A DNA stretch of 64,000 nucleotides from Gammaproteobacteria bacterium. Lineage in GTDB: Bacteria > Pseudomonadota > Gammaproteobacteria > Poriferisulfidales > Poriferisulfidaceae. The stretch is from contig JAPOXW010000027.1 of the NCBI GenBank assembly GCA_026706895.1, forward strand, positions 72,373-136,372, written 5' to 3'. The first letter of the stretch is position 1, and each line of letters begins with the position of its first letter. A program made the translations under genes and the position numbers. A model generated the notes under the pieces. That model was not told the DNA's origin and did not search any database. It saw only the letters and a list, made by a program, of their open reading frames with translations. This document shows, one piece after another, positions 4,490-61,399 of this stretch.

Positions 4490-5427
4490 AAACTGACCCT
4501 GCTCAAATTGTGATCCAAGATAACGTCCGCAATATAAAGAAGATGCTATTAGAGTTGATGCTCTATCCACGACGCGATCTGATGAAATGGGCCAGAATTA
4601 CGAAGCAAACACCCAATACGAAAATTGGATACATCGGGCAGCATCTTGCCTCCCTTGTTACGGGTGTTGAGGGAACCAGAACAGGTGCCCGTGGCCATGA
4701 TCTTTCTGATGGTTCCGAAGTAAAATCATGCTCGCGAGTCGATCAACTTGATAAGTGTAATGAGTGCGGTGCCGCAGTGGCTCGTATTGAGGCTGAATGT
4801 CCCAAATGCGGGTCAACTGATGTTAAGCGTAATAACGATTCAAAATGGTTGATCTCCATTAAAAGCCGCCCAGAATTAGATATTTTGCTAAATCATGTTC
4901 CGCGAGTCGTGCTTATACTGAGTGACTATTTGAATTACGAGGAACAAGATTGGGATACTCTACAGTTCCAAGTCTTTGAGATATGGCCCACAGAGGAACG
5001 TCACATCAATTTTAAGAAGCTAATGGAAAATTATTTGTATCGAATATATGAACCGCACATTGAACAGGACCCAAGTAAGACTCCCGCCCCCAAAAATCTT
5101 TGGCCCTATTCATTCCAGTTTTTCATGTGTAATCCCATACGCACGTTCCACTGCATAGCGAAAAATGTTTTGGAAGATCCCCAGCTTGAGGTTTTGGAGT
5201 ACGTTGAACCTTTGACAGACCGAACGACAATTGAACCTATACTGATGCCTTTGTCTGCGCTCAATGACGGCGAAAAAGAACATCTGCACCAATGTATGGG
5301 CGATCATGCTTATGCTTTAGCTGAAAAAAATGGATTGAGCGCTCAACAGCGCTTGAGTTTACTGACACTTCGCGATACTGATTATGCTTCACCCCAGCAG
5401 TCGTCATACCAACGCGGCGTCCGCTGA
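4486..5427 (+). CDS. Putative type II restriction endonuclease
   Basis: 313 aa, translationally coupled to the C protein and convergent with the N6-adenine methyltransferase. Contains a C-x2-C...C-x2-C zinc-ribbon (CNECG...CPKCG). AT-rich codon usage. No family recognised by eye. Confidence 0.4.
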   Translation: MKTDPAQIVIQDNVRNIKKMLLELMLYPRRDLMKWARITKQTPNTKIGYIGQHLASLVTGVEGTRTGARGHDLSDGSEVKSCSRVDQLDKCNECGAAVARIEAECPKCGSTDVKRNNDSKWLISIKSRPELDILLNHVPRVVLILSDYLNYEEQDWDTLQFQVFEIWPTEERHINFKKLMENYLYRIYEPHIEQDPSKTPAPKNLWPYSFQFFMCNPIRTFHCIAKNVLEDPQLEVLEYVEPLTDRTTIEPILMPLSALNDGEKEHLHQCMGDHAYALAEKNGLSAQQRLSLLTLRDTDYASPQQSSYQRGVR

Positions 5428-18783: not shown

Positions 18784-20136
18784 ATGAAAAGACCTGAAAA
18801 GGCCCCCTCAATAGAAGATCTCGTGAAGAAGATTCAGCCTGAGGACATGAATAGGCTGTTTTCTCAAGGAAATATTGCGGTCCTTCCTACTATTGCCGGA
18901 AAATACCTGCACTGGTCCGAACTGAGACACAGAACACCACCCGAAGGGCTAGATCACAAGCTTTGGTGGCTGAAGATAAAAGTCGCGCGGGGGCATGCAA
19001 GGAAAGAAATACTCCTGAAAGACGCAGGCGGAGTACATTTCAGTTTTTGCATCCCCGATTCAGTATTGGAGACGCTGCACAAAATCGACGGCCAGGCGGC
19101 AGGTCGAATCGCTATACCGGAGCAAGTCACCAATCCGGAAACAAGAGATCGTTACATCATAAATTCTCTTATTGAAGAAGCCATAAATTCAAGTCAGTTG
19201 GAAGGAGCCTCGACCTCCAGGAAAATCGCGTCGAACATGCTGAGGTCGGGGCGCAATCCCAAAAGTCAGGATGAACGAATGATTCTGAACAACTACATGG
19301 CTATGAATTTTGTCCGGCAGGTTAAAAACGAAAAATTAACGCCGGAACTAGTCTTGGAACTGCACAGGATTGTCACCGACCGGACGTTGGAGAACACTGA
19401 CGCAGCCGGAAAGCTGCAAACGAGCGACGATGTGAGGGTCGGTGTTTACGATGTCAAAAGTGGGCGCCGATTGCATGCACCCCCTCCCGCGAGCCAGTTG
19501 CAAAGTCGGTTGGAGGAATTGTGTGAATTCGCGAACGAGCAACATGTGGATTCAAATTTTCTGCATCCTATCGTCAAGGCAATCATCCTGCACTTCTGGA
19601 TCGGTTTTGATCACCCATTTGAGGATGGGAATGGAAGATTGGCACGCGCATTGTTTTATTGGTGGGTGCTGAAGCAGAATTATTGGCTATTCGAATTTCT
19701 ATCCATATCAAGAAATATCAAGGAGGCTCCTGCACAGTACGGATATGCCTACCTGTACTCGGAAACTGATGAAAATGACTTGACGTACTTTATCGTCCAC
19801 CAGTTAAAAGTCATCATGTCGTCAATTTCGGATTTAGAAGAATACCTGAACAGAAAGATTGAACAGGTACATGCCTTGGAAAATAAACTGAAGAACGCTG
19901 GCCAATTCAACCATAGACAATTAGCGTTGCTCAGTCACGCGATTCGAGGAAATAGTGATGGATACACCTTTAGGTCTCACCAAACAAGCCACAACATAGT
20001 TCGTGCAACGGCACGCGCAGATTTACTCTCTCTAGAGGAGCACGGGCTGCTCTTCAAAGGAGGCAAAAGGAGCGGAGCAATCGTGTTCTACCCAGCAGAA
20101 GATATAGATGAAAGAATCGACAGTTTGTCAGACTAA
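18784..20136 (+). CDS. Fic family protein (class II, auto-inhibited AMPylase-type)
   Basis: 450 aa. Fic motif HPFEDGNGRLAR matches HPFx[DE]GNGR. An N-terminal inhibitory-helix-like motif SSQLEG matches [ST]xxxE[GN]. Strongly AT-rich relative to flanking genes. Confidence 0.85.
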   Translation: MKRPEKAPSIEDLVKKIQPEDMNRLFSQGNIAVLPTIAGKYLHWSELRHRTPPEGLDHKLWWLKIKVARGHARKEILLKDAGGVHFSFCIPDSVLETLHKIDGQAAGRIAIPEQVTNPETRDRYIINSLIEEAINSSQLEGASTSRKIASNMLRSGRNPKSQDERMILNNYMAMNFVRQVKNEKLTPELVLELHRIVTDRTLENTDAAGKLQTSDDVRVGVYDVKSGRRLHAPPPASQLQSRLEELCEFANEQHVDSNFLHPIVKAIILHFWIGFDHPFEDGNGRLARALFYWWVLKQNYWLFEFLSISRNIKEAPAQYGYAYLYSETDENDLTYFIVHQLKVIMSSISDLEEYLNRKIEQVHALENKLKNAGQFNHRQLALLSHAIRGNSDGYTFRSHQTSHNIVRATARADLLSLEEHGLLFKGGKRSGAIVFYPAEDIDERIDSLSD

Positions 20137-43520: not shown

Positions 43521-44711
43521 GTGCACATTTCCCCCCGAACAATGTACTTACAAAGAACAGAGGATTTGAGAAACGAGATTGTTGGCATCCTCCGCCTACA
43601 GGGCTATACCGTTACTGACCATGCCTTTCACTTAGTCGATCCTGGCAAGGAAAAAATGAGGAACCTTCATTCTAGAGCCCGAGCAGAAAAAATCTGCCGG
43701 CACATCAATTTCATGCAGTCACGTGCCTGTAAAGTCAAAGAATTCATGCTTAACAGCGATGAGGTACAGATTGACAAGATCGCCCCCCGGATTATTGAAG
43801 TTCGTGCCAACTCAATCTATGTAGATTTGTTTCGATGGTGGAACCTAGCTTGGTGGAGCCTGCCATATGAACGGACTTATGGAAGACAAATGCGGTTTAT
43901 CGTCTGGGATGAATATCATAATGCGCCAATCGGGTTGATTGGATTGCAAAGTCCGATTTTGCGCTGGAACGTTCGAGACGAACATCTTGGCCTCGCTCCG
44001 GACAAAAGGGATTATTGGATTAACCAATCCATGAATGCGCAACGATTAGGCGCGTTGCCCCCATATAACAAATTCCTCGGCGGAAAACTCGTCGCTTATC
44101 TCATGATGTCTGATGAGATTCGTAAACAGTATCGGGAAAAATACAAAAACCGTGAAACAATCATGATGAAAAGGATGATCCCCCCTCATTTGCTGTTTAT
44201 TACCACAACTGGTGCATACGGGAAAAGCAGTGTTTATAACCGGTTGCGATTCAATGAGAGTCGAGTCTGTGAATTCATCGGCTACAGTCGGGGAAACGGT
44301 TCTTTCCACATACCTGACACACTATATGAAAGTTTGATACATCATCTCGATAAAAATGGGGTCAAAGTAGGTCGGGCTTTCGGTAGCGGTCCTTCTGCAA
44401 AGATCAAAAACATAGACCGGTCAATGCGTCTTTTGGGCTTTAGAAAAGGTAGCAGTCACGGCATCAAGCGCGCTGTCTACTTATTTTCTTTCGTCCAGAA
44501 CCTCCAATCAGTGATTCAGCACAATGAAACACCAATTTGGGAACAGCGTAATATCGATGAATTGACGCAATATTGGAAAGACCGGTGGGCGATAAAAAGA
44601 AATGGTGGCTATCCGAAGGAAAAACTAAGATTCAGGAAGGAAGAGTTCATGTGCTCAATGAAACAGGATTGGGAGCGTTGCAAAAAGTTAATTGAGAGCA
44701 ATCTACCATGA
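43521..44711 (+). CDS. Hypothetical protein, first gene of an AT-rich three-gene module ending in NurA-like and HerA-like genes
   Basis: 396 aa, AT-rich, with no TM segments or signal peptide. No family recognised by eye. Its stop overlaps the next ORF's start as ATGA. Confidence 0.5.
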   Translation: MHISPRTMYLQRTEDLRNEIVGILRLQGYTVTDHAFHLVDPGKEKMRNLHSRARAEKICRHINFMQSRACKVKEFMLNSDEVQIDKIAPRIIEVRANSIYVDLFRWWNLAWWSLPYERTYGRQMRFIVWDEYHNAPIGLIGLQSPILRWNVRDEHLGLAPDKRDYWINQSMNAQRLGALPPYNKFLGGKLVAYLMMSDEIRKQYREKYKNRETIMMKRMIPPHLLFITTTGAYGKSSVYNRLRFNESRVCEFIGYSRGNGSFHIPDTLYESLIHHLDKNGVKVGRAFGSGPSAKIKNIDRSMRLLGFRKGSSHGIKRAVYLFSFVQNLQSVIQHNETPIWEQRNIDELTQYWKDRWAIKRNGGYPKEKLRFRKEEFMCSMKQDWERCKKLIESNLP

Positions 44712-45898
44712 CGCAGGAAAATAAAGGCTATGCCTACCTGCCCGAAGATCTTCTAGTGCAAATACTTGGGAAAATCCCTGAAACCGCCGACCGGTTGGCA
44801 ACAAGTATTGAATTAAATAATGAGCAGGCAACCGCCGCCCGGAGGGTTCTGAAGGAAAGGGATCTGATCAGAGTCTGTCCCGACGGAAATCATACGGAAT
44901 CCATGATGGCAGCTGATGGGGCCTGTATCGTAGAACACAAAACCAGCGCAGACATTTTGCTTGCCATTGCGGTGGGAGTGGATGGCCTTTCTGATGAAGA
45001 TTCGTCAACATGGCCAGAAGGAGAAAGGCAATATCAGCACTGGCAAGCGGTCTTGCCCCATCATGTTGCCAATCCGAGATTGTCACAGGGGATTATGTTC
45101 TTGATGGAACTCAGCATACTTGCTGGAAATGATCGCGAAGTCAAAATCATGGATGGGTCGCATTTGACTTCCATACTCAAACTCAACAGCCTCTTGAGCG
45201 CCAATGATCAGGATGCGGCAGATCAACCATATGTCCAAGCACTTTCGGATTTCTTACACGAGAATTACGAAAAAGTGATTCCAGACATTCCGAATATAAT
45301 TCGTGACGCTTTTTCCGATAGTGCGGTGGTTGGATTGACCAAATATTCTTCTTCCCGCGAGATTATTGATACAGTTTTACGAGAGACACAAATCGATATG
45401 GACGATAAAGTGTTTATGTCAATCGTCCTGAATGAGAACGAATATACGAAACCGCTCACAGTTGGACAATGCCGCAAGGAACGAGGTATGTGGAAAAACG
45501 TACACATGAAATGCAATCTGGAGATTGAGGGGGTAGACAATGACTCGGAACTAAATCCATGTCTGGAAGAGGCTATTGCCCCATTCAAGATAACGGATAA
45601 TCACGAATCAGAACTTTACTTTTGCTATTACAAGCCGAATTCATACTCATCAGCTCACAGGATTGAAATCAAACAGGAACTTGCGCTTGATTCAGGAAAA
45701 TTGGAAAAAATGTTCCGGAGTGTCAAGCGTCAAATTATCTCTCCAGAAATCAGGGAGCCATACCCCCAGTACCTAGCAGACATCATAGCCAAAAACATCT
45801 CTTTCGGTATGGAAGCGATAAATCAGGCTATCAGCCACAACCCGACTCTTAATACCCAGAAGAATTTTGATTTGATTTTTCCTTACCGCACTAACTGA
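44708..45898 (+). CDS. Probable NurA-family nuclease
   Basis: 396 aa. Assigned mainly by its conserved pairing immediately upstream of a HerA-type ATPase, plus DG[SL] acidic motifs (VGVDGLSDED, KIMDGSHL). Fold not verified. Confidence 0.4.
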   Translation: MTQENKGYAYLPEDLLVQILGKIPETADRLATSIELNNEQATAARRVLKERDLIRVCPDGNHTESMMAADGACIVEHKTSADILLAIAVGVDGLSDEDSSTWPEGERQYQHWQAVLPHHVANPRLSQGIMFLMELSILAGNDREVKIMDGSHLTSILKLNSLLSANDQDAADQPYVQALSDFLHENYEKVIPDIPNIIRDAFSDSAVVGLTKYSSSREIIDTVLRETQIDMDDKVFMSIVLNENEYTKPLTVGQCRKERGMWKNVHMKCNLEIEGVDNDSELNPCLEEAIAPFKITDNHESELYFCYYKPNSYSSAHRIEIKQELALDSGKLEKMFRSVKRQIISPEIREPYPQYLADIIAKNISFGMEAINQAISHNPTLNTQKNFDLIFPYRTN

Positions 45899-45920
45899 AA
45901 AACAAACGTTCACGACTAAC

Positions 45921-47627
45921 ATGAATATTATTTCTATTCTTGAAAGCGATAATGAACCGCTGGGAGTAGTCGGTTCTCCGAGCAGTTCTTTTGAGGCAAT
46001 TGTTGATATAAAAGAAGTGAGCGAGTCAAGCAAACTGTTGGGAGAACTGGTATGTTTTCAGGTCCCAGAAGGCGACAATCAAGTGCTTGTCCTCGGCCAG
46101 ATTACTGAAATCGAGACCAGAAACAGATGGCATGAGGAACCGTCATTTAAGGGAATCATCAAGCGGCACGGGAATCTGCCCAATCTGAGCGGTGTTGCCG
46201 ACAATCGAATCGCCAAAATTAATGTCCAATCCAGTTTCATCCTGGCCGGTGATTCTCCGCAGGCACATAAACTTGCAAACTCTCCTACAACTGGCACTCC
46301 CGTGAAGAAAATAAGCAACACCATCATGGAAGAACTCATGAGGCAATATGAGGGCCATCTTGTCTGCCTTGGGACTGCCTACGACACGGATGTCAAAGTG
46401 CCATTCTGGTTCAGACATTTTGGCAGTCCGAGTGATGGAGGAGGGGGCGACGCTTATCACATTGGGGTTTTTGGTCGAACCGGGTCCGGCAAAACAACAA
46501 CTGCCGCTAACATGATTCTAGGATACGCCCGGAATAGGGAAAACATGAGTATTTTGATACTTGACCCACAAGAGCAATTTTATGAAGACAACAATGTACT
46601 ACCCGGAGGAAACAAATTCGAGGATGCAATAAAGCAAACCGGGATGCAGTTCAAAAAGTACAAGGTCCCAGAGGATATCGCCTTGCCCAATGATGAAAAA
46701 TTGTTCAGCGAACTGCTTTTGAATTACAACTTTGTAAGAAGGGCATTCAGATTGCACTCTTCGGAGAAACAGACGCTGATGGCGGAATCGATACAAGACT
46801 ACATTACAGGAAGAATGAATGATCCCAGTTTCATAATCGGAGATGAAAATAGTGATACTCTTCTTGCCAAGATGGTTCAAAAATTCAATGACGATGAAAA
46901 ATATCTTAAAAATGTCTATTCAAGCGGCCAGTACTTCAACAATCTAAAGAGACGAATTGAGAGCATGGTGGGGGACAGTGTAGATTCTGAAGCAAAGCAA
47001 ATATGGGCGCATGTCTGTAGCCTATTTAAATCTGATGGGAAAAAGGGGCTAGCTCAAGTGGTCGAATCAGTGGTAGGCAAGCCAAACAATCTTATTGTGC
47101 TCAACATCTCGGGAAGGCATGCCACAAGCGGGATGGAGTCCCTCCAAACACTCTTCATCAAGATTATCGAAGATGCCGTGAAGAAAAGGGGGGCAGATCT
47201 ATATGCCCAAGGAAGCCAAGCAAACTGTCTAGTCGTGCTAGACGAGGCTCACCGGTTTATCAGCACATACAGCTACGACCAAGAACTCAAGGACTTGACT
47301 ACTAGCATCGTTGATGCTGTCCGGACTACGCGGAAATATGGAATTGGCTATATGTTCATTACACAAACCATTGATTCGCTCCACGAGGAAATCAGAAGAC
47401 AGATCAGAATTTTTGCATTTGGGTATGGGCTCACGAGCGGTTCGGAGTTTCGCAAGATACAAGACACCATCAATGACGATACAGGGGCTAAATTTTACCG
47501 GTCCTTCATTGATCCATCGAGTAACAACAAGTTTCCGTTTATGTTTTATGGTCCGATTTCCCCTCTTTCCTTCACGGGAACACCTCTTTTTCTGGAAGTG
47601 GGCAAACAAATCAAGGACTTCCCTTAG
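45921..47627 (+). CDS. HerA-type (FtsK/HerA superfamily, DUF87) ATPase/helicase
   Basis: 568 aa. N-terminal HAS-barrel-like region. Walker A is GVFGRTGSGKTTTAANM and Walker B is CLVVLDEAHRF. The RKYGIGYMFITQ arginine-finger/sensor block is typical of HerA/VirB4-like ATPases. Confidence 0.8.
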   Translation: MNIISILESDNEPLGVVGSPSSSFEAIVDIKEVSESSKLLGELVCFQVPEGDNQVLVLGQITEIETRNRWHEEPSFKGIIKRHGNLPNLSGVADNRIAKINVQSSFILAGDSPQAHKLANSPTTGTPVKKISNTIMEELMRQYEGHLVCLGTAYDTDVKVPFWFRHFGSPSDGGGGDAYHIGVFGRTGSGKTTTAANMILGYARNRENMSILILDPQEQFYEDNNVLPGGNKFEDAIKQTGMQFKKYKVPEDIALPNDEKLFSELLLNYNFVRRAFRLHSSEKQTLMAESIQDYITGRMNDPSFIIGDENSDTLLAKMVQKFNDDEKYLKNVYSSGQYFNNLKRRIESMVGDSVDSEAKQIWAHVCSLFKSDGKKGLAQVVESVVGKPNNLIVLNISGRHATSGMESLQTLFIKIIEDAVKKRGADLYAQGSQANCLVVLDEAHRFISTYSYDQELKDLTTSIVDAVRTTRKYGIGYMFITQTIDSLHEEIRRQIRIFAFGYGLTSGSEFRKIQDTINDDTGAKFYRSFIDPSSNNKFPFMFYGPISPLSFTGTPLFLEVGKQIKDFP

Positions 47628-47636: not shown

Positions 47637-48416
47637 ATGCCTATTTACAACCGTCTGCTTCTTCTGGGTCTGCTGGCTTCACTCGGTGGAATCATACATG
47701 CCGCAGATTTGCCGTTCTCCTTGGGCGCGGACTCCGGGCTGCAGATCGCCGTGCGACTGATTCCGGACAAGACCCCAGAAGAACCGTCATCGGACGGCAG
47801 TATCGAGGAAGAGGGCGCGGAATCTCCGGAACAGGCGGAAGAAGGTGCGCCTTCCGCACAAACTCCCGGTGTCCCGGCCTCACAGGAGGACCGCGGCGAA
47901 GATCAAGGCCTTTTGGAGAGTCCGGAAGAGGGTCAGCCGGCCGCAGGCCAGGAAACCGCCGGTGAAACCGAAGGTCCCGGTATCGAAGACGGGCTCGAAA
48001 GGGAACCGGAACTTGCGGAACAGGCCAGTATCGAAGAAGGGCAAGAGAAGGATCTGTCCCGAATCGAGGCCGTGTTGAACCGTGTTGACCAGATCCTGCT
48101 GGACGCGCGAACCCGAGCCCGCAAAGAGCGGGAAGGAACAGTCGATGGCGAAGGGACAGCAGAAGAAGATTTGCCGGATTGGGAGACACAGGGCGAAGGC
48201 GAAGGGGAAGCTGCGGAGGAAGGAGCCGAACGCGGCGGAGTCGCCGAGGGCCAGGTCCCCGGCGATGTCCCGACCGGCAAGACGCGTCCGACTCACGGCT
48301 ACGAGGGTGACGACGACATCGTGACCCGGCAGGTCTGCGAACTGGCGCAACGGGAGGAAGATCCCGAGGTCCGCAAACAGCTGGAGCAAAAATGCAAGAG
48401 CCTGCGAGACAGTTAA
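47637..48416 (+). CDS. Secreted acidic low-complexity protein (first gene of the envelope operon)
   Basis: Signal peptide MPIYNRLLLLGLLASLGGIIHA, then a Glu/Gly/Pro-rich disordered region and a C-terminal Cys pair. Host-like GC. Its stop overlaps the next ORF. Confidence 0.5.
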   Translation: MPIYNRLLLLGLLASLGGIIHAADLPFSLGADSGLQIAVRLIPDKTPEEPSSDGSIEEEGAESPEQAEEGAPSAQTPGVPASQEDRGEDQGLLESPEEGQPAAGQETAGETEGPGIEDGLEREPELAEQASIEEGQEKDLSRIEAVLNRVDQILLDARTRARKEREGTVDGEGTAEEDLPDWETQGEGEGEAAEEGAERGGVAEGQVPGDVPTGKTRPTHGYEGDDDIVTRQVCELAQREEDPEVRKQLEQKCKSLRDS

Positions 48417-49576
48417 CCCTGATGGCCTTGCTGCTGGCCTTCGCCAGCGGATGCCAGACCGGCATGTCCGGCATCACCGGGGGCCTGTTCGAAGCATCGT
48501 CGGAAGAGCCGGCCGTCGAGCCGGTGCCGGAAGAATGGTATCTGGATGCCGGCATTATCCGGTTCAAGGGGGAAGTCGACCAAAAGGAAGTCGCCGAGGG
48601 GGACGTGTTCCCCCAGGTGCGGAAAGCCGAAACCCTGTACTTTCCCCAGCAGTTGCGCCAAGCGATGCTGCGCGGGGGTGGCTGGCGGCATGTGTGGGTG
48701 GTGCCGGAACGCGCCGTTCCGGACCTGCGCATCGAGGGCGCGATCCTGAAATCGAACGGCTCCGAACTGGATCTGAAAATCCTTGCCACCGACTCGACCG
48801 GCGAGCAGTGGCTCGATCGCGTCTATCGCCATGAATTCAGCGAAACCGATTACGCCGGCGAAGATCGGGCCCGGCCGATGGAGGCCCTGTTCGACCAGAT
48901 CGCAAAAGATCTCCTGGTCGAACGCGACCGCAAGGGAGTAGCGGCCATGAAGGAGATCCGCGCCGTGGCGGAACTGCGGTTCGCGGAGGAATTCGCACCG
49001 CAGGCGTTCGAACGTTACGTCAATGAAGATAAGGGCCGCACGCGCTTGGTTTCGCTGCCGGCCGAAGAAGACACGTTGTACCAGCTGGTGCTGCAAATCA
49101 AGGAGCGCGACGACCTCTTCATCGAGACCCTGCAGCAATACTCGGAGGGTTTTTCGGAAAAGATCGATGCGTCGTATCGGGACTGGGCACGGCAGAGCTT
49201 CTACGAACGCCGTGCGCATGACGAGGGAGTTGCCGCCAGCGTAACGCAGGGGCTTCTGAGCGCCCTGGCCATCATTGGCGGAGTCGTGGTGGCGGCCGAC
49301 TCAGGGTCTTCCCCGGAAGCCCGCCAGCTTGGCCAAGTGCTGGTGGGGGCCGGCGCCTACGGCGCCTATGATGCCTACCAGGACTACGAAGCAACGGAAA
49401 TCCACGAGGCCGCGCTCAAGGAGCTCGGGCAGTCGCTCGACCTGGAGGTGGAACCTCAGGTCGTGCAAGTAGAGAACCAGACACGCACGCTTACCGGGTC
49501 GGTCGAAGACCAGTACCAGCAGTGGCACGAAATCCTGAACGAAATCTACCTGTCGGAACGTGGCGCCCTGAACTGA
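48392..49576 (+). CDS. Lipoprotein of unknown function
   Basis: Signal peptide with lipobox (LLLAFASGC). 394 aa with no recognised domain. Translationally coupled on both sides. Confidence 0.55.
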   Translation: MQEPARQLTLMALLLAFASGCQTGMSGITGGLFEASSEEPAVEPVPEEWYLDAGIIRFKGEVDQKEVAEGDVFPQVRKAETLYFPQQLRQAMLRGGGWRHVWVVPERAVPDLRIEGAILKSNGSELDLKILATDSTGEQWLDRVYRHEFSETDYAGEDRARPMEALFDQIAKDLLVERDRKGVAAMKEIRAVAELRFAEEFAPQAFERYVNEDKGRTRLVSLPAEEDTLYQLVLQIKERDDLFIETLQQYSEGFSEKIDASYRDWARQSFYERRAHDEGVAASVTQGLLSALAIIGGVVVAADSGSSPEARQLGQVLVGAGAYGAYDAYQDYEATEIHEAALKELGQSLDLEVEPQVVQVENQTRTLTGSVEDQYQQWHEILNEIYLSERGALN

Positions 49577-50301
49577 TTTCGGTTGCACTGGCGCTGGCGG
49601 CGGGACTGGCCGCAGGAACCGCCGCGGCCGAGAGCATCCAGGATCAGGCGCTTCGTGCCATGCTTGATTCGAACTGGGCCCGGGCGGTCGAGTTGTGGGC
49701 GGAAGTGGACGGGCGACGAGCCCGGGAATACCTTCAGCAGGCTCGGGCGGAACTCCAGTTTCAGCGAACCCGGTCCCTGCTGAACGAGGCCCGTGCAGCC
49801 CGACAGAAAGAAGACTGGGCGGCGGCCGATGCCGCCTACCTCAAGGCGCTGGCCATCTCCCCCCATTTGAAGTCGGCGCACCAAGGCCGAGAACAGGTTG
49901 CCCTGTACATCGAGGCATACCGGCGGCTGGATGCATTGAAACTGCCGGAAGGCCTCTACGACAAAGTCATCCGCGCCCGAGCGAAAGAGTGGCTTGCCTT
50001 CATCCGAGAAAAACAACTCGATGACCGGAAGATAGACAAGGCCCGCACGGGACTTGTCGAGGCATTGAAGCTTGCGCAAACCCCGGTCTCCCTGATCCTG
50101 ACTTCGGACAACCAGTCCGAGATTGAAATTTACGGCATCGGGAAACTCGGACGGCTCGAACGCCAGACCCTGAAGTTGGTCCCGGGCGATTACATCGTCG
50201 TCGCCAACCGACCCGGATACCGAGATACGCGCGCGACGTTGAGAATACGCCCTGGTAAGGCTCTTACCCTGGACATTCGATGCACGGAGTCGATCCGGTG
50301 A
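49522..50301 (+). CDS. Secreted protein with C-terminal PEGA domain
   Basis: N-terminal hydrophobic signal-like segment, a helical/TPR-like middle, and a C-terminal PEGA-type beta-sandwich motif (LKLVPGDYIVVANRPGYRDTRATLRIRPGK). Confidence 0.5.
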   Translation: MARNPERNLPVGTWRPELISVALALAAGLAAGTAAAESIQDQALRAMLDSNWARAVELWAEVDGRRAREYLQQARAELQFQRTRSLLNEARAARQKEDWAAADAAYLKALAISPHLKSAHQGREQVALYIEAYRRLDALKLPEGLYDKVIRARAKEWLAFIREKQLDDRKIDKARTGLVEALKLAQTPVSLILTSDNQSEIEIYGIGKLGRLERQTLKLVPGDYIVVANRPGYRDTRATLRIRPGKALTLDIRCTESIR

Positions 50302-52115
50302 TTCTCGAGCACGAACCGATCCAGGCCAAACCATATCGGCCGCCCAAGCGGGAAAGGCGCCGCAAGCGACCTTCGGCCCCCCGATTTCGCGGGGCGGGAC
50401 TGGCGATTCTGATCCTGGCACTGATAACGGCAGGCGCCTGGTACGCCATGGAACAAGCGCAACTCATCAGCTTCGAGACCGACCCCGCAACCGCCACGGT
50501 GCATCTCGAGAGCCCGCACATGATGATGAACGGGCAAGCCTTGCTCTGGCGCGGGCAACATGTCGCGAATGTGGAAGCAGAAGGCCACCATCCCCGGCAG
50601 ATCGAATTCCAGGCGGGTGGAGACGCGCCGCGCACCGTGCAGGTCACTCTGGACCCCTTGCCGGGCAAACTCCGGGTCTCCACGACCCCTGAAACCGAGG
50701 GGGAAGTCCGGGTCGACGGCGAACACGCCGGGAAGATCGGAGAAATACTGGAGGATTTCTCTCCGGGCCGGCATGTCGTGCAGGTCAGTGTGGAGGGCTT
50801 CGAAATGCACCGGCAAACGGTAGAAATCGAGGGATACGGCCAATTGACCGAGATCGAGATTTCGCTCCAGAAAGTCGCGGAACCCGCCTTGTTGACGATT
50901 TCCAGTACCCCCGAGGCCGCGGACATATTGATCGATGGCACCTGGCGGGGGCGGACCCCGAAACGGGTCGTATTGACCCCGGGGGCCAAGGTGGAAGTCG
51001 CCCTGTTATTTCCTGGCCATACCCCGGATCGGCAGACTCTAGAGTTGAAGTCCGGCCGGCAAAACCACGCAGTGACCCTGACGCCGCGACTCGGCGCCCT
51101 TGAACTCTGGCCGATGCCGGCCAATGCGACGGTCCGGATCGGCGGGCAGGTGGAACTTCGGCGCCAGTTGCAGTTGACGCAGCGAACCCATACCGTGGAG
51201 GTTTCCGCGCCGGGCTATGTAACGAAGAAATACACCGTGGTGCCTCATCCGGACACCCCGAAGCAGCTTTTCGCCGTCTTGCAGTCGCAAGCGAAGGTCG
51301 AACAATCCCGGCGCCAGAAGCATGAACAGGATCTCGGGCTGGTCTTCGTCGAGTTCCAGCCCCGCGACTCGTTCGAACTCGCGACCACGCGCCGCCGAAT
51401 CCCGGTGCGCCTAACCCGACCATTCGCGATCATGGACAAGGAAGTCACCAACGCCCTATACCGACGCTACCGGGCCGAACATGATTCCGGAGAAGTGTTC
51501 GGCAAGCGCCTGGGCCGCCCAAGCCAACCCGTGGTGCGGATCAGCTGGGCGGATGCGGCATTGTTCGCGAACTGGATGAGCGGGCGGGCGGGGGTTGCGC
51601 CGTTCTACCGGGTGCGCGACGGGAAAATCGTGGGATTCGACGCGCAGGCAACCGGATACCGGCTGCCGAGTGAGGCCGAATGGGTCTGGTTGACCCGTTC
51701 CGGAAAGCGGTATGCCTGGGGCGACTTCATGCCGCCCCCGGACCGGTTCGGCAATCTGGCGGACGCTTCCGCCTCCGACATCGTGCAGCCGACGCTGGAA
51801 GGATACAACGACGGGTACGCCGTCAGTGCCGACGTCGGAAGCTTCCCGCCTTCGGGCCAGGGGTTGTATGATTTGCCGGGCAACGTGGCGGAATGGATGC
51901 ACGACGTGTTTCTCGACAAGCTGCGGGTCTCGGCCCGCCCGGAGACGGAGCGAGTCAACCCGCTGGGCGAGGCCAGCGGGCGGTTCTATGTCATCCGGGG
52001 ATTCAGCTGGCGCGACGGCGGGCGCAAGGAGTTGAGCCTGAACAACCGCCGCTACGACCGCGATCCCAAGGACGATGTGGGATTTCGGCTGGCTTATTAC
52101 CTGGACAAGCCATGA
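50280..52115 (+). CDS. Membrane-anchored PEGA-repeat protein with C-terminal FGE-sulfatase domain
   Basis: 611 aa with a basic N-terminus and one TM helix (AGLAILILALITAGAWYAM). Three or four PEGA repeats (e.g. ISSTPEAADILIDGTWRGRTPKRVVLTPGAKVEV). The FGE-sulfatase hallmarks are RISWADAALFANW, YRLPSEAEWVWL, GNVAEWMHD, RVIRGFSW and DVGFRLA. Confidence 0.8.
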   Translation: MHGVDPVILEHEPIQAKPYRPPKRERRRKRPSAPRFRGAGLAILILALITAGAWYAMEQAQLISFETDPATATVHLESPHMMMNGQALLWRGQHVANVEAEGHHPRQIEFQAGGDAPRTVQVTLDPLPGKLRVSTTPETEGEVRVDGEHAGKIGEILEDFSPGRHVVQVSVEGFEMHRQTVEIEGYGQLTEIEISLQKVAEPALLTISSTPEAADILIDGTWRGRTPKRVVLTPGAKVEVALLFPGHTPDRQTLELKSGRQNHAVTLTPRLGALELWPMPANATVRIGGQVELRRQLQLTQRTHTVEVSAPGYVTKKYTVVPHPDTPKQLFAVLQSQAKVEQSRRQKHEQDLGLVFVEFQPRDSFELATTRRRIPVRLTRPFAIMDKEVTNALYRRYRAEHDSGEVFGKRLGRPSQPVVRISWADAALFANWMSGRAGVAPFYRVRDGKIVGFDAQATGYRLPSEAEWVWLTRSGKRYAWGDFMPPPDRFGNLADASASDIVQPTLEGYNDGYAVSADVGSFPPSGQGLYDLPGNVAEWMHDVFLDKLRVSARPETERVNPLGEASGRFYVIRGFSWRDGGRKELSLNNRRYDRDPKDDVGFRLAYYLDKP

Positions 52116-52330
52116 AACGGTTCTGGTGGGTATCCCTGTACGCGGCGACGTCTCTGGCGTGGGCCGAAGAGCCTCCTGCACCGCAAGCGGAAGACGAGGA
52201 GCGCGAAGTCATCGAAGTCCTGACCGAAGAGGACCTCAAGCGGGAAATCCCACAGATCACGCTCAAGCAATTGACCCCGAAAGAAACCATTTCCCTTGAT
52301 CAAGCCGTGGATATGCCCAGTGACATTTGA
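52112..52330 (+). CDS. Small secreted acidic protein
   Basis: 72 aa. Signal peptide MKRFWWVSLYAATSLAWA then an acidic tail. ATG overlaps the upstream stop as ATGA. Confidence 0.4.
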   Translation: MKRFWWVSLYAATSLAWAEEPPAPQAEDEEREVIEVLTEEDLKREIPQITLKQLTPKETISLDQAVDMPSDI

Positions 52331-53201
52331 ATTGAACAATCTGACCGGGCGCTGGCGCGAACACGAAGTGTTCTGGCAATTGCTGGCATTAGCGGTGTCG
52401 TTCGTGCTGGTGCATGCAGCATATGAACTGGTGGTGCGACCCGTCGCCTACGAGGAACTGCAACGTCAGGCCGTCGCCGAGGAACAAGCCGAAATCGCAT
52501 CGCCAACGCTCGGCGCACGGGTCTCCGTGGTCGTCAAGGACTACGAGCAGGAAGCCTGTTTTGTCGCCCTGTTCTGGGCGCTCGCCATCATGTGGATGAA
52601 GCTGATGAAGCTGCGCTTCGCGCGAAGGCTGCTGAGCCAGCGTGGCCGACAAAACGAGGAAAGTTTCCTGGAAACCCGGGAAACCGATCTGGTCCTGCCT
52701 CAGGCGCACGACCGGGCGCGTTTCACCGACGTGCGAGAGCATGTGCGAATGCAAGGCTACGGCAGTACCGTGCTCTATCGGGCTGCCGATGCCTGTCTGG
52801 ATCGCTTCTTCACGACGCATTCCGTATCGGACGCCACTGCGGCCATGAAGGCCAGTTGCGAGATGGAGTCGGACCGGCAGGACACCGAACTGGCGCTGGT
52901 GCGCTACCTGACCTGGGCCATTCCGTCGCTTGGATTCATCGGCACGGTGCGCGGGATCGGTGCAGCCCTGGGGCAGGCCGAAGAAGCCACGCGCGGCAAC
53001 ATCGGACCGGTGACGGAAAGCCTTGGCGTGGCATTCAATTCAACGTTTGTCGCCCTGCTGATCAGCCTGTTCATCATGCTGCTGCTGCACAAACTGCAGG
53101 AAGCCCAGGAGTCGCTGGTACTGGATGCCCAGGAGCATTGCCAGCACCACCTGCTGCGTTACCTGCGGGAGCGGACGCGGACGGATGAGCCTTCTTCTTA
53201 G
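52296..53201 (+). CDS. MotA/TolQ/ExbB-family proton channel protein
   Basis: 301 aa, three TM helices. The C-terminal signature LTWAIPSLGFIGTVRGIGAALG...IGPVTESLGVAFNSTFVALLISLF aligns with ExbB/TolQ (GLFGTVWGI...APGIAEAL.ATAIGL.AAIP). The start is approximate and overlaps the upstream ORF. Confidence 0.8.
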   Translation: MIKPWICPVTFELNNLTGRWREHEVFWQLLALAVSFVLVHAAYELVVRPVAYEELQRQAVAEEQAEIASPTLGARVSVVVKDYEQEACFVALFWALAIMWMKLMKLRFARRLLSQRGRQNEESFLETRETDLVLPQAHDRARFTDVREHVRMQGYGSTVLYRAADACLDRFFTTHSVSDATAAMKASCEMESDRQDTELALVRYLTWAIPSLGFIGTVRGIGAALGQAEEATRGNIGPVTESLGVAFNSTFVALLISLFIMLLLHKLQEAQESLVLDAQEHCQHHLLRYLRERTRTDEPSS

Positions 53202-54096
53202 GATCGACAGCTACGCGCTGGCACAGCCCGACGGCACCGACTGGCGGGTCGAGTGGTGCCTTGCCCATCGGGATTCAAAAGACGGTTGGCGATTCGGTAA
53301 AGACGCCGGTGAACGGCTGCAGCCCCGACGCACCGACAACGAAAACAACGAATACCTGGAAACACCGGAGACGGTAGAAGGCCAAGGCACATCGAATAGC
53401 GACCTTGCGTATCTACAGTTACGGGGATTCCTGCCGGAAGAGGAAAACTCGATCGATCTTTCGGTGAGCGGAGGAATCGACCGGTCCCGGCTCGAATGTC
53501 TGCTGGGTGTTCTGGAAGCCTTGAGCTACACACCCCGAAGTGTATTCCCGACCGCGCTGCTGGCGGCCCGGAACCTTGAGCCCGGACGCTACGGCATTAT
53601 TGAACTTGGACGCAGCCGCAGTTGGATCAGTGCCGTTGACGTCCAGCCGGGTCGTGCGCGACTGGAATCGGTCCAGGATTACGGGGATTTCGGCTTCTAT
53701 CACCTCTTCACCCAATGGGTGGAGAACGCGGCGGAAGCCTTCGCCGCCCAGCACCGTTTCGACATACATCGCAACCTCGCGACAAACCGCGGACAACTGT
53801 TCGAACAAATGTGCCAAGGCTTCGCCGGGAAATCCGGACAGATCCAGCTCAATCTGGATTCCCGGCCCGTGACGCTGGACGAAAAAGTCTTTCAAGCCCG
53901 CTGGCCGAAGTCTTCTCTCGACACGGAGGGGCTGGGCCTCCTGCTGCTGCCTCCTCTGACACGGGCGTTGCCGCTGCCGGAACAGGGGTTGGATCTCCCT
54001 CTCTGTGCCAACCCCGCGCCTCGGGCCGTCTTCAACCTGGACGCCTCCGTGCCGGAAGACGGACAAGCCCACCGTTGCGTGGCTCTCTCCTGCTGA
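53185..54096 (+). CDS. Hypothetical soluble protein embedded between the ExbB-like and ExbD-like genes
   Basis: About 304 aa from MSLLLRIDSY. No TM segment and no recognised domain. Coupled to both neighbours. Confidence 0.45.
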   Translation: MSLLLRIDSYALAQPDGTDWRVEWCLAHRDSKDGWRFGKDAGERLQPRRTDNENNEYLETPETVEGQGTSNSDLAYLQLRGFLPEEENSIDLSVSGGIDRSRLECLLGVLEALSYTPRSVFPTALLAARNLEPGRYGIIELGRSRSWISAVDVQPGRARLESVQDYGDFGFYHLFTQWVENAAEAFAAQHRFDIHRNLATNRGQLFEQMCQGFAGKSGQIQLNLDSRPVTLDEKVFQARWPKSSLDTEGLGLLLLPPLTRALPLPEQGLDLPLCANPAPRAVFNLDASVPEDGQAHRCVALSC

Positions 54097-55140
54097 ATGT
54101 CCAGACGCCGCCGCAGCCGTTTCCTGAACCCGTTCGGCCTAGCTTTCCTGGATGTCATGTCCTGCGGGCTGGGGGCTGCGGTCCTGTTGTTCCTGATTAT
54201 CGACCACAACCTAACCGAACTGGCGCAGGCATCGGAGAGCGGCGAGGGAGATGTGCAACTGCTGGAGCAATCGATCCAGGAACAGGAAGAACTGATCACC
54301 GAGCACCGCAGACAGATGCGGCAACTGCAGCGCGAGCTGGAAAGCCTGGCACAGCAGCGCGTGGCCGCCATCACCACCCAAGCCGAACTTCGCGCCCGCC
54401 AACCGAAGGCGTCCGATACGGCTCGACTTGAACGTGAACTGCGCGAGCGCAAGAAGAAACTCCAAGAAGCGGAGAAAAGCAAGCAACTGAGGGCGAAAGA
54501 AGGAGAAGGGCAACGCCAGTACGTAGCCGGCTTCCGAGTCGAGGGCCGTCGCATTCTGATCCTGTTGGATCGATCGGCCAGCATGCAGGACGAGCGAATC
54601 GCCACGATCATCCGAAACAAGTTTCTCCCGGTGAAATACCAGATCGAGAGCTACAAGTGGCGCTGGGCGCGTTCCATCCTCGAGTGGGTTCTCTCGCACC
54701 TGCCGCAAGAGGCGCAATACCAGGTCTGGGGGTTCAGCACGACGGCAGCGCCAGCGTTGCCGAAGAGCGGGTGGATTCCGGCAAAAGACGGGAAACGGAT
54801 GGAAGAGGTGGTTTCGGCCGTGCAGGGCTGGGTCCCCTCAGGAGGAACCCGCCTCGATACGACCCTCAAGAAGATCGCCCAGATCAAGCCAAGGCCGGAC
54901 GCGGTCTATCTGATTACGGACGGCCTGCCGACGCAGGGAAAATCCTGGTTCAAGAAAAACCGGGTCAGCCCTTCCCGGCGCATGGAGTTTTTCCGAGAAG
55001 CAACGGGAAGCATCGCAGGCCCGCCTTTCAACATCGTCCTGCTTCCGCTTGAAGGCGATCCGGCGGCAGCCGGGGCTTACTGGGGATTTGCGATGAGGAC
55101 GAACGGGCAATTCCTGGCCCCGGCGGAGGACTGGCCATGA
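54097..55140 (+). CDS. ExbD/TolR-like TM anchor, coiled coil and periplasmic vWA domain protein (paralog 1)
   Basis: N-terminus RRRRSRFLNPFGLAFLDVMSCGLGAAVLLFLII matches the ExbD/TolR TM helix with conserved Asp (cf. PLIDVMLVLLIIFM). A long coiled coil follows. The vWA MIDAS motif is LLDRSASM (DxSxS), followed by YLITDG. Confidence 0.7.
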   Translation: MSRRRRSRFLNPFGLAFLDVMSCGLGAAVLLFLIIDHNLTELAQASESGEGDVQLLEQSIQEQEELITEHRRQMRQLQRELESLAQQRVAAITTQAELRARQPKASDTARLERELRERKKKLQEAEKSKQLRAKEGEGQRQYVAGFRVEGRRILILLDRSASMQDERIATIIRNKFLPVKYQIESYKWRWARSILEWVLSHLPQEAQYQVWGFSTTAAPALPKSGWIPAKDGKRMEEVVSAVQGWVPSGGTRLDTTLKKIAQIKPRPDAVYLITDGLPTQGKSWFKKNRVSPSRRMEFFREATGSIAGPPFNIVLLPLEGDPAAAGAYWGFAMRTNGQFLAPAEDWP

Positions 55141-56102
55141 GGCGCGTCCGCCGGCAAGCCGACAACCGTTTGTCGTTCCTTGACGTGGTCAGCTGCGGGT
55201 TCGGGGCCATGGTGTTGCTGATCCTGATTACCAAAAACACCGTGGGCGAGCCGGTCGAAGACCTTCGAGCCCAAATCGAAGCGCTGCAAGAACAACTCGC
55301 ACGCGTCATCCAAGTCCGGGCAAGTCTGGCGGCCGAACAATTTTCGGCGCAAGCCCGGGTACACGCCCAGCAGGAGAAACTGCAGGACGACCGGAGGGCC
55401 GTAGAAGAAGCGCGGCAGGCGAGCGCCAGCGCCCAGGCGCAGGCCTTGATCGAAGCAGACCTGAAGAGCGCTCTGCAGCGCCTCAACGAAGAAATGCGGC
55501 GGCTGAACCTGACTGCATCCGAATCGGACGTGATCGGCGGCATCCCGGCCGACAGCGAATACATCATCTTTATCGTCGACACGTCCGGCAGCATGAAACG
55601 GTTTGCCTGGAAGGCCGCCAGACAGCAGTTGGTGGCCCTACTGGACGCCTACCCGAAAGTGCGCGGACTCCAGGTGATGAACGACATGGGCGCATACATG
55701 TTCAGCGGCTACCAGGGGCGCTGGATCCCGGACACGCCCGCACGGCGGAAGATCCTCCTGCAGCGTTTTGATTCCTGGCATTCGTACAGCAATTCGAGCC
55801 CCGTCGAAGGCATCCTGGAAGCCATCAAGCGGTTCCGCATGAAGTCCGACAAGATCAGCCTGTACATCTTCGGCGACGAATACACCGGCGAGTCGATCCA
55901 GTGGGTCATCGACACGGTCGAGGATCTCAACCACCGGGATGGGAAGCGGCAGGTCCGCATTCATGCGGTCGGGTTCTTCACCCGCGCGCAGATCGAGAAG
56001 ATCGACCCGAAATATGCCGACACGACAAGCCGATTCGCGGCATTGATGCGGGAGTTGACCCGGCGCAACGGAGGGACTTTCCTAGGCGTCGAAGTGGACT
56101 GA
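55137..56102 (+). CDS. ExbD/TolR-like TM anchor, coiled coil and periplasmic vWA domain protein (paralog 2)
   Basis: N-terminus LSFLDVVSCGFGAMVLLILI (ExbD-like, conserved Asp), then a coiled coil. The vWA MIDAS motif is IFIVDTSGSM (DxSxS). Start overlaps the paralog-1 stop. Confidence 0.7.
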   Translation: MRRVRRQADNRLSFLDVVSCGFGAMVLLILITKNTVGEPVEDLRAQIEALQEQLARVIQVRASLAAEQFSAQARVHAQQEKLQDDRRAVEEARQASASAQAQALIEADLKSALQRLNEEMRRLNLTASESDVIGGIPADSEYIIFIVDTSGSMKRFAWKAARQQLVALLDAYPKVRGLQVMNDMGAYMFSGYQGRWIPDTPARRKILLQRFDSWHSYSNSSPVEGILEAIKRFRMKSDKISLYIFGDEYTGESIQWVIDTVEDLNHRDGKRQVRIHAVGFFTRAQIEKIDPKYADTTSRFAALMRELTRRNGGTFLGVEVD

Positions 56103-56116: not shown

Positions 56117-56192
56117 TGGTGGACCCAGGGGGAATCGAACCCGCCGTTACTGCCGTGAAAGGGCAGTGTGCTAACCGCTACACTATGGGTCC
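56117..56192 (-). tRNA. tRNA-Glu (anticodon UUC)
   Basis: Reverse complement is GGACCCATAGTGTAGCGGTTAGCACACTGCCCTTTCACGGCAGTAACGGCGGGTTCGATTCCCCCTGGGTCCACCA. Cloverleaf with anticodon loop CTTTCAC, T-loop GGTTCGATTCC and an encoded CCA. Confidence 0.85.
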
Positions 56193-56328: not shown

Positions 56329-57069
56329 TCACGCAGCAAGCGGAACGAAATCTCCGCTGGCCATTGGTTCATGCTCAACCCAGCGGCCGCTCATTTCAAT
56401 CAGAACGTGCTGGCTCAACGGTGCGGGTTGCGGGTTGACCTTTACCACATGTGCGGAATATGTCGGAGACTCGGTCATTGCGTCAACAATATTTTCCATA
56501 AGGTAGCGCGGAATCCAGCCAATCGCGTGGTGGTGCTTCGTTTGAATTTGCACAACCGGCCGAGTCGCCAAGTCGGTCTGTTCCAAGGCGATATGTAGCT
56601 CTTCTCCTTTTTTTAATTGGTCAATCCTCTGAAGAGCCGATGCGCTTGCGTCTTGCAAGCCCTGCAGCAGGAAACGGCATGTGAAACTTCCGTCTTTATC
56701 TTTCTCGATTTTCGGAAAGACTTCATAAAAATCCGTAACGCGACGACCACCATTTACCGACAAAATTTCGACGGAGTCTGCGCTTTCCGGCAGATCAAGG
56801 CAGTCAAGATATTGCGCGCGGGCTGGCCTGCCTCTGGCAATGACCCGGTTCCTGAAAATAGCAAAAAGCTCGGGAGATTGATAGTCCCCTTTCATGTCCG
56901 GAAAGTCGTACAGCGGAGGGAACCCGACTTCCCGGCTCGCCCGTTCTGCGCCAGCCGTGTATCGGAACCGGAACCGGGGCAAATCGGTCTCTGCATCCAG
57001 CCTTCCGATCGGAAACCAGTGCCGACGTTCTTTGTCGCGCCAACCCAGGTACATAGTTTGCTCATTCAC
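56329..57069 (-). CDS. Hypothetical protein between ubiE and tRNA-Glu
   Basis: 246 aa with host-like GC and no TM. No family recognised. Starts 10 nt after the ubiE stop. Confidence 0.4.
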   Translation of the reverse strand: MNEQTMYLGWRDKERRHWFPIGRLDAETDLPRFRFRYTAGAERASREVGFPPLYDFPDMKGDYQSPELFAIFRNRVIARGRPARAQYLDCLDLPESADSVEILSVNGGRRVTDFYEVFPKIEKDKDGSFTCRFLLQGLQDASASALQRIDQLKKGEELHIALEQTDLATRPVVQIQTKHHHAIGWIPRYLMENIVDAMTESPTYSAHVVKVNPQPAPLSQHVLIEMSGRWVEHEPMASGDFVPLAA

Positions 57070-60750: not shown

Positions 60751-61026
60751 ATGCCCCGGCATGAACCACTCACCACCACCGTCTCGACAAAGGGCCAGGT
60801 CGTCCTGCCCAAAGTCATCCGCAGGGCATTGCGCTGGAGAACTGGAACGCGGCTGATCGTGGAAAACACCACCAAGGGCGTCTTGCTCAGGCCGGATTCC
60901 GCATTTGCCTCGACACGACCGGAGGATGTCTTCGGATGCCTTGCCTTCGACGGCCCGCCCAAATCCCTTGCCGAAATGGAGGCCGGGATCCTGACGGAAG
61001 CGAAGCGGCGCCATGCAGGCGATTGA
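60751..61026 (+). CDS. AbrB/MazE-type antitoxin (VapB-like)
   Basis: 91 aa. SpoVT/AbrB swapped-hairpin N-terminus (VSTKGQVVLPKVIRRAL). Overlaps the downstream PIN gene. Confidence 0.65.
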   Translation: MPRHEPLTTTVSTKGQVVLPKVIRRALRWRTGTRLIVENTTKGVLLRPDSAFASTRPEDVFGCLAFDGPPKSLAEMEAGILTEAKRRHAGD

Positions 61027-61399
61027 CACCAATGTCGTGGTCCGCTACCTGACCGGGGACGACCCCGATCAGGCCACCCGTGCGAGAGGGATTATCGACA
61101 TGGAAGAGGTTTTTGTCTGCACGACCGTCCTGCTTGAAACCGCCTGGGTGTTGCGTAGCGTTTACGGCTTTGCCGGAGAGGAAGTCGCGGTGGCCTTACG
61201 CGCCTTCTCAGGGCTGCCGAGTGTTGCGGTGGAAGACCCCGCCCTGCTCGCCGTGGCACTTGATCGTGCAGAAAAAGGCATGGACTTCGCCGACGCGCTG
61301 CACCTCGGGGCAGCCGCCCACTGCGAGATGATGTTCACGTTTGACCGCCAGTTCATCGAAACAGCGAAAGACGCTCCGGTCAGGGTGGCGGAACCCTAA
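61013..61399 (+). CDS. PIN-domain toxin VapC
   Basis: 128 aa beginning MQAIDTNVVVRYL, with acidic residues at conserved PIN positions. Confidence 0.75.
   Translation: MQAIDTNVVVRYLTGDDPDQATRARGIIDMEEVFVCTTVLLETAWVLRSVYGFAGEEVAVALRAFSGLPSVAVEDPALLAVALDRAEKGMDFADALHLGAAAHCEMMFTFDRQFIETAKDAPVRVAEP

Follow-up and report, generated by a model that had tools for sequence, protein, structure and literature searches.

Two tandem vWA genes beside a TolQ-like gene

The window analyzed here is the whole 64,000-nucleotide stretch of contig JAPOXW010000027.1 (assembly GCA_026706895.1, positions 72,373 to 136,372 of the forward strand) from a gammaproteobacterium of the Poriferisulfidaceae, and our subject is a pair of its genes encoding membrane-tethered von Willebrand factor type A (vWA) proteins. 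Paralog 1 (54097..55140, + strand, 347 aa) and paralog 2 (55137..56102, + strand, 321 aa) stand back to back, exactly where a preliminary description of the sequence had placed them, and their open reading frames (ORFs) overlap by 4 bp (ATGA). Both products have an Arg-rich N-terminus, a transmembrane (TM) helix, a helical stalk and a vWA head. A gene for a channel subunit of the MotA/TolQ/ExbB family, presumed to form a pentameric ring, lies 0.9 kb upstream on the same strand (52296..53201), and the three proteins are discussed here as probable parts of one ion-driven motor.

The two vWA proteins share 23% identity over 287 aa (BLASTP, E=2e-11), and profiles built from their orthologs match with 99.5% probability (hhalign, E=2.8e-22, 252 columns), in an alignment that extends from the N-terminus into the vWA domain. 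This end-to-end match implies that they are old paralogs with one common architecture. Strong purifying selection acts on both genes, each of which has a ratio of nonsynonymous to synonymous substitution (dN/dS) of ~0.08 when compared with locus L007. Among 1.84 billion cluster representatives, 464 belong to the family at E<=1e-30; the only annotation that members have been given is 'VWA domain-containing protein'. The nearest genomes are those of Ca. Porisulfidus, sulfur-oxidizing sponge symbionts with chromosomes of 1.6-2.0 Mb.

The preliminary description had staked its reading on the vWA fold, and this fold holds up, in Pfam for both proteins and also in structure prediction for paralog 1. 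Pfam detects VWA_2 (29.8 bits) and VWA_3 (28.2 bits) in paralog 1 and VWA (27.9 bits) in paralog 2, all above their gathering thresholds. An AlphaFold2 (AF2) model of paralog 1, made from a 30-sequence alignment, has a per-residue confidence (pLDDT) >90 at residues 150-347, and its top PDB matches in Foldseek are all vWA domains (E 1e-7 to 1e-5, probability 1.00), including ITIH1, 4fx5, BatB (3ibs), CLCA1, calcium-channel alpha2delta and LapA vWFA. Paralog 2 is tied to this modeled fold through the 99.5% hhalign match. Both heads carry the motif of a metal ion-dependent adhesion site (MIDAS), which reads DRSAS at residues 158-162 of paralog 1 (D158-x-S160-x-S162; from nt 54568) and DTSGS at residues 148-152 of paralog 2 (D148-T-S150-G-S152; from nt 55578). 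The further conserved MIDAS positions, Thr/Ser and Asp, fall at GGT249-251 and T274-D275 in the former and at SNSSP218-222 and G246-D247 in the latter; paralog 1 also ends in an invariant C-terminal D-W-P. Between membrane and head runs the stalk, at residues 37-139 in paralog 1, where the AF2 model places helices at 13-45, 51-100 and 108-139 ahead of the vWA domain, and to about residue 130 in paralog 2. Both proteins therefore have the architecture first described, in which an Asp-bearing TM helix and a helical stalk precede a MIDAS-bearing vWA domain.

Each protein has one hydrophobic segment (residues 17-35 in paralog 1, 14-32 in paralog 2), preceded by the Arg-rich N-terminus, with a TM helix extending over about residues 15-36 and about 12-32, respectively. 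Within it stands an acidic residue, Asp19 of paralog 1 (nt 54151-54153) in the motif LAFLDVMSCGLGA and Asp16 of paralog 2 (nt 55182-55184) in LSFLDVVSCGFGA, so that both paralogs read FLD-x3-C-G-x-G-A. Conservation was followed across 80 metagenomic loci at 33-41% identity, counting for each gene only those loci with enough flank; these loci are the nearest relatives returned by the scan, and are neither a random nor a phylogenetically independent sample. The pattern [FL]LD-x3-C-[GSA]-x-G-[AS] is found in 80/80 paralog-1 and 67/67 paralog-2 orthologs at this overall identity, and the acidic residue is invariant in 147/147. Indeed, the TM segment is the best-conserved block of each protein: in the 30-sequence alignment of paralog 1, which reaches down to 36% identity, L15, F17, L18, D19, M21, C23, G24 and G26 are invariant. 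The single cysteine of each protein, Cys23 (nt 54163-54165) or Cys20 (nt 55194-55196), is near-invariant among orthologs; it follows the TM Asp by four residues, or one helical turn, and G-x-G comes next. To our knowledge, the D-x3-C-G-x-G signature is absent from the corresponding helices of E. coli ExbD, TolR and MotB.

We conclude that this segment is a functional N-in TM helix, because it is highly conserved, its Asp breaks the lipobox rule and no AXA-type site follows the helix, in which most of the hydrophobic residues lie C-terminal to the Cys. The same observations bear out the earlier view that the N-termini are TM anchors rather than cleavable signal peptides.

The ring gene, read here from TTG 52296, although the real start is perhaps a few codons downstream, encodes 301 aa that match Pfam MotA_ExbB (PF01618) at 45.9 bits against a cutoff of 22.9 (E 5.8e-12). 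The protein is about equally far from TolQ, MotA and PomA, and is an equivalog of none of them. Its pore threonines are Thr217 in GFIGTVRGI (nt 52944-52946) and Thr250 in AFNSTF (nt 53043-53045); alignment to TolQ (8odt) and MotA (8gqy) puts GTVxGI and the Thr of the third TM helix in register, and both Thr motifs are retained in 60/60 ring orthologs. The TolQ-like gene stands upstream of the vWA pair in 57/58 loci, and paralog 2 directly follows paralog 1 in 64/64. The nine ORFs of the cluster in which these genes lie gave no match to ExbD, TolR or MotB at E<=0.1 and, because the cluster genes abut or overlap, there is no space for a further gene at the junctions.

A proposed motor with a vWA axle

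We consider it likely, with a probability of about 0.65, that the vWA pair makes up the axle, as the two trans-pore helix subunits at the center of an ion-driven motor of the 5:2 type whose ring is the TolQ-like protein. The idea of the preliminary description that the pair plugs such a channel fits the locus well: a ring gene with both pore threonines is adjacent, the cluster holds no ExbD or TolR, and the genes co-occur in 57/58 to 64/64 loci. The sequences, folds, motifs, conservation and synteny are shown by the data; that the products form one complex, and its 5:2 stoichiometry, heterodimeric axle, ion use, ligand and cellular role, we infer.

Such a motor might work as follows. The MotA/TolQ/ExbB-family protein encoded at 52296-53201 would form the ring, and each vWA protein would be held N-in by its one TM helix. 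The invariant TM Asp would be placed inside the ring, beside the two conserved threonines, where it could take up and release protons (or Na+), and ion flow at this Asp/Thr site would power relative rotation. The stalk, predicted to comprise about 90-100 helical residues (~13-15 nm if extended), would carry the MIDAS head in the periplasm, so that the heads might reach the peptidoglycan/outer-membrane zone. The paralogs would pair via their stalks, most likely as a heterodimer. Through a metal ion, the heads could engage an acidic residue on a partner in the periplasm or near the outer membrane; among the products of the cluster, the candidates for this partner are the two secreted proteins rich in acidic residues, a lipoprotein and a PorK-like protein with PEGA repeats and the fold of formylglycine-generating enzymes (FGE). 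This contact would either fix the axle, as in MotB, or pass rotation or pulling force outward, as in GldM/PorM or TonB/TolA. A cytoplasmic protein of Hsp70/actin fold may act on the motor from inside. The stalks had also been likened to the tails of Zorya ZorA; that analogy fails on topology, because in ZorA it is the pentamer subunit that is extended, and the tail lies in the cytoplasm.

Several observations weigh against this proposal. The TM helix had been described as that of ExbD, and as a statement of homology this is not supported. Neither vWA protein matches Pfam ExbD (PF02472) at E<=0.1; a profile of 13 N-termini, searched against all PDB chains, recovered no ExbD, TolR or MotB chain; a full-length vWA-protein profile found only coiled-coil proteins in the PDB, such as ATP synthase subunit b; and paralog 2 alone had zero PDB matches. 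When compared directly with the N-terminal sequences of E. coli ExbD, TolR and MotB, the TM profile scored ~0 bits, values equalled by 205, 691 and 279 of 1000 shuffles, respectively. HMMER sets the family Asp on ExbD D25 (FIDVM) and TolR D23 (LLDV), again at ~0 bits, and the only likeness to the ExbD/TolR helix is a short F-[LI]-D-V-M / L-L-D-V motif aligned on the Asp. The resemblance to the ExbD/TolR/MotB helix is thus one of short motif and topology; the segment would act in the manner of such a helix, but membership of that family cannot be demonstrated. The ring, too, is only remote kin of TolQ and MotA (PDB E 0.2; 27 bits for NCBIfam TolQ, whose cutoff is 221), and an additional hydrophobic segment at its N-terminus brings the total to four, where TolQ has three. 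In principle, this ring could be served by a canonical TolR or ExbD from another part of the genome. Finally, the N-terminal 49 residues of the AF2 monomer of paralog 1 are helical but have a pLDDT of 35-43, a low confidence that is expected because the TM helix was modeled without partners.

That the two paralogs form a heterodimer, as had been proposed from their tandem arrangement, is suggested by their obligate co-occurrence, the 4-bp overlap, their near-identical TM motifs with diverged heads, and the co-variation of their stalks. The distance from Asp to MIDAS, 139-156 residues in paralog 1 and 132-146 in paralog 2, co-varies between them with r=0.80 over 68 loci that are not phylogenetically independent; such a correlation is expected if the paralog stalks pair in register. 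MotB, ExbD, TolR and GldM are homodimeric in known motors, and with TM motifs so nearly identical either paralog here could fill both pore positions. The same motor might then exist as two species that share one ring, each paralog making its own homodimeric axle. We regard this arrangement as unlikely, given the strict co-occurrence in 64/64 loci, the ORF overlap, which suggests translational coupling, and the co-varying stalk lengths; moreover, a published family with this architecture, discussed below, occurs 'predominantly in heterologous pairs' (PMC12204202).

A less probable alternative is that the vWA proteins are a bitopic scaffold pair like PilN/PilO or GspL/GspM, whose cytoplasmic tails are held, in the manner of PilM, by the ASKHA-fold (Hsp70/actin-type) protein, while the ring uses a TolR or ExbD from elsewhere or works alone. 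Both vWA proteins are indeed bitopic with coiled-coil stalks, an ASKHA-fold cytoplasmic protein is encoded immediately upstream of them, and paralog 2 has a weak match to the GspM family (E 0.02). That match, however, is limited to the TM segment and coiled coil and is far under the cutoff, and a scaffold would leave unexplained both the mid-TM acidic residue, invariant in 147/147 orthologs, and the missing TolR/ExbD partner beside a ring gene that retains its threonines.

It is very improbable that the N-termini are export signals, of a signal peptide or a lipoprotein, and that the products are free or lipid-anchored vWA proteins of the BatA/BatB or YfbK type, unrelated to the channel. The Cys does follow small residues (VMSC in one protein, VVSC in the other) in a superficially lipobox-like way, and one of the structures that the head matches is BatB. 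Nevertheless, the Asp would sit at -4 in the would-be h-region, the hydrophobic stretch lies mostly past the Cys, there is no AXA-type site, the top conservation of the segment is unlike that of signal peptides, and the cluster has no MoxR ATPase or DUF58 gene. Least probable of all is a role in anti-phage defence, with a MotA/ExbB-type channel at the core of a Zorya-like system: Zorya shows that 5:2 motors can serve in defence, and a low-GC island of DruA/NurA/HerA type lies directly upstream in the window, but PADLOC gave no significant match (best ZorA E 0.033, the rest coiled-coil noise), the island is missing at the same site in locus L019, where the cluster comes directly after the ubiB-side genes, all products except the ASKHA-fold protein are predicted to be envelope or secreted proteins, with no nuclease or effector encoded, and synteny is stable across divergent genomes.

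The conserved gene cluster and its surroundings

The vWA genes are the last two of a tightly packed cluster of nine genes on the + strand that begins at 47637; directly past them, on the opposite strand, lies a tRNA-Glu gene (56117-56192). Scans of the sequence for promoters and terminators gave no more matches than shuffled sequence. The first gene (47637..48416) encodes a very acidic protein of 259 aa, 64 of them Asp or Glu, with a signal peptide; its conservation is confined to a Cys-containing C-terminal helix (DDDIVTRQVCELA...). It is followed by a gene for a putative lipoprotein of 394 aa (48392..49576), which has a lipobox-like N-terminus (LLAFASGC), a hydrophobic Gly-rich segment at residues 284-305 and no family match, and then by a gene for a 259-aa envelope protein (49522..50301) with an N-terminal signal or anchor, a helical region resembling tetratricopeptide repeats (TPR) and a PEGA-like C-terminus. 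The counterparts of these last two genes are present in 32/33 and 36/36 loci, respectively.

The fourth gene (50280..52115), present in 40/40 loci, encodes a bitopic inner-membrane protein of 611 aa with a basic cytoplasmic N-terminus, a TM helix at residues 39-57, PEGA repeats and a C-terminal domain of FGE-sulfatase fold. Its PDB matches to PorK/GldK (E 9e-13, residues 411-604) and to true FGEs (E 2e-13, residues 459-577) are about equally good. The protein has zero cysteines and therefore cannot be a formylglycine-generating enzyme; with the catalytic cysteine pair missing, that candidate is ruled out. We also rejected PorK/GldK of the type IX secretion system (T9SS), since the protein scores 68.9 bits where the GldK cutoff is 350, it is TM-anchored with no lipobox, and there are no porL, porM or porN genes; what the two have in common is only the fold of the FGE domain.

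Between this gene and the ring gene, which it adjoins, lies a gene for a small acidic protein of 72 aa with a signal peptide (52112..52330). It is poorly conserved overall, yet a C-terminal (M/F)-P-x-D-I is common to it and its positional equivalents at the loci L015 (7643-7864), L017 (7459-7743) and L019 (8013-8255), and this ending is a candidate docking or MIDAS-ligand motif.

The remaining gene (53185..54096) separates the ring gene from the vWA pair, a position it keeps in 60/62 loci, and its 303-aa product is a cytoplasmic protein that lacks TM segments and Pfam matches alike. This protein is homologous to its 442-aa counterpart at the same position in distant clusters (hhalign 96.6%). 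It is modeled as a two-lobed ASKHA fold, with a predicted template-modeling score (pTM) of 0.81, and the model finds its best PDB matches in Hsp70 nucleotide-binding domains and in MreB (E 3e-10). By eye, its ASKHA phosphate-binding and adenosine motifs seem degenerate. The equivalents in distant relatives have 442-445 aa (L015 8683-10011; L017 8662-9999), and the extra ~140 C-terminal residues of these long versions end, again by eye, in an FHA-like motif (L-x-NG-x-V...GD-x-I-x-V).

The whole cluster is syntenic in Ca. Porisulfidus, in other gammaproteobacterial metagenome-assembled genomes and in distant relatives at 31-47% identity. Two extra lipoprotein genes, absent from the window, follow the vWA pair in 45/58 (first) and 42/55 (second) loci. 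Larger versions of the cluster have these downstream lipoprotein genes (209-231 aa; L015 12106-13427, L017 12157-13564) and also an upstream gene for a TPR protein (L015 510-1742) whose C-terminus is weakly TonB_C-like (E 0.0026, below threshold); the upstream TPR gene and both downstream genes are missing from the Porisulfidus-type cluster in the window. Here the host is a reduced-genome sponge symbiont, and the cluster is kept in the Ca. Porisulfidus genomes of 1.6-2.0 Mb.

A broader possibility, which we put forward tentatively and with less than even confidence, is that the whole cluster, of nine to twelve genes, encodes a larger trans-envelope machine with the vWA pair and ring as its engine. 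In such a machine, the Hsp70/actin-fold protein would gate or position the motor, the cysteine-free PEGA/FGE-fold protein and the lipoproteins would make up a periplasmic or outer-membrane-proximal partner structure, and the MIDAS heads would engage the acidic secreted proteins of the cluster. Its retention in sponge-symbiont genomes of 1.6-2.0 Mb would then point to a core, not an accessory, envelope role. PorKLMN and Agl-Glt would be its functional analogues, although they are built from unrelated parts.

Several other features of the window lie outside the cluster. A low-GC (0.44-0.48) island at 43521-47627, inserted between the ubiB/SCP2 genes and the start of the cluster and absent at the L019 site, consists of three + strand genes, whose products are a DruA-like protein (213 bits to Pfam DruA), a protein with a NurA domain and an ATPase of HerA/DUF87 type; it is probably an anti-phage island, separate from the motor cluster. 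A second low-GC patch (0.46) at 4486-7311 is a restriction-modification island, with a MamI-type restriction endonuclease and an N6-adenine methyltransferase. Past the cluster, a 246-aa ORF between the tRNA-Glu gene and ubiE (56329-57069, - strand) has no Pfam match at E<=0.001, and a VapBC-like pair of a MazE/AbrB-type antitoxin and a PIN-domain toxin lies at 60751-61399 (+ strand). A Fic-domain protein is encoded at 18784-20136 (+ strand).

Comparison with known systems

Known 5:2 ion-driven motors include flagellar stators, the Ton and Tol systems, the T9SS/gliding motor and Zorya. Each newly recognized class has revealed another way to spend membrane energy outside the cytoplasm. With a MIDAS adhesion module fused straight to its axle, the proposed motor would be a simple natural system in which to ask both whether an axle turns or stays fixed and what a motor-driven vWA head pulls on.

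Compared with ExbB-ExbD or TolQ-TolR, this locus has a Pfam MotA_ExbB ring with both pore threonines, and the vWA proteins, like ExbD and TolR, have a single N-in TM helix whose Asp lies near the cytoplasmic third, and show the local F-x-D-V-M / L-L-D-V likeness. They differ in that they have no ExbD/TolR periplasmic domain, and the TM similarity is not significant. The putative output, the vWA domain, is fused to the axle rather than borne on a separate TonB or TolA, the axle would be a paralog pair, and the ring has an extra N-terminal hydrophobic segment. MotA-MotB and PomA-PomB likewise combine a 5:2-type ring with an Asp-bearing axle, in which the MotB-type periplasmic domain binds a fixed envelope structure, and the ring here may have four TM segments like MotA. 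In contrast to those stators, the vWA proteins have no OmpA-like peptidoglycan-binding domain, we identified no plug helix motif, and there is no flagellar context.

GldLM and PorLM also have a dimeric axle that bears a long periplasmic extension as the presumed output, and with PorK/GldK they share a non-enzymatic protein of FGE-sulfatase fold encoded beside the motor genes. However, the axle and ring described here have no sequence relationship to GldM and GldL, no other T9SS genes are present, and the FGE-fold protein is TM-anchored with PEGA repeats rather than a lipoprotein. Because the tests of T9SS membership fail, the likeness to PorK-PorL-PorM is one of analogy only. BatA and BatB are tandem TM-anchored vWA paralogs, and BatB (3ibs) is among the best matches of the head; Bat operons differ in having MoxR ATPase, DUF58 and TPR genes and no MotA/ExbB gene, and we know of no conserved TM Asp motif in BatA or BatB.

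The closest counterpart is a family that has already been proposed computationally, named "TPH-vWA" (PMC12204202, Mol Biol Evol 2025), so that the motor idea is not new and the earlier remark that no fusion of ExbD-vWA type was known is superseded. In that account, TM-tethered vWA proteins encoded beside tolQ-like genes, with no tolR, have a TolR/ExbD-like trans-pore helix with a conserved Asp; the genes occur mainly in Proteobacteria and Verrucomicrobia, with Idiomarina loihiensis as the exemplar organism, and an AlphaFold3 (AF3) model, which lends independent support to the motor reading, sets the paired Asp residues within a TolQ-like pentamer, beside the Thr ring (PMC12204202). Our literature searches found no experimental follow-up, and found the TolQ-like/vWA system described only there, their other results being about unrelated systems.

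The text of PMC12204202 does not include the other seven genes conserved here, among them those for the PEGA/FGE-fold protein, the ASKHA-fold protein and the lipoprotein. The locus differs further in belonging to a reduced-genome sponge symbiont and in being without the downstream lipoprotein genes found in 45/58 of its relatives. Beyond the published proposal (PMC12204202), it adds a defined set of conserved partner genes and strong selection in a minimal symbiont genome. For experiments, it adds the invariant Asp19/Asp16, Cys23/Cys20, the MIDAS residues and Thr217/Thr250 of the ring as mutation targets. What most deserves follow-up is the conserved nine-gene context. The two accounts agree on a single TM helix with an Asp, a C-terminal vWA domain, a heterologous pair, a proteobacterial host, tight linkage to a tolQ-like gene, a Thr ring, and no tolR or exbD alongside. 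Overall, the vWA pair matches every feature named for TPH-vWA (PMC12204202), a match that rests on the described features.

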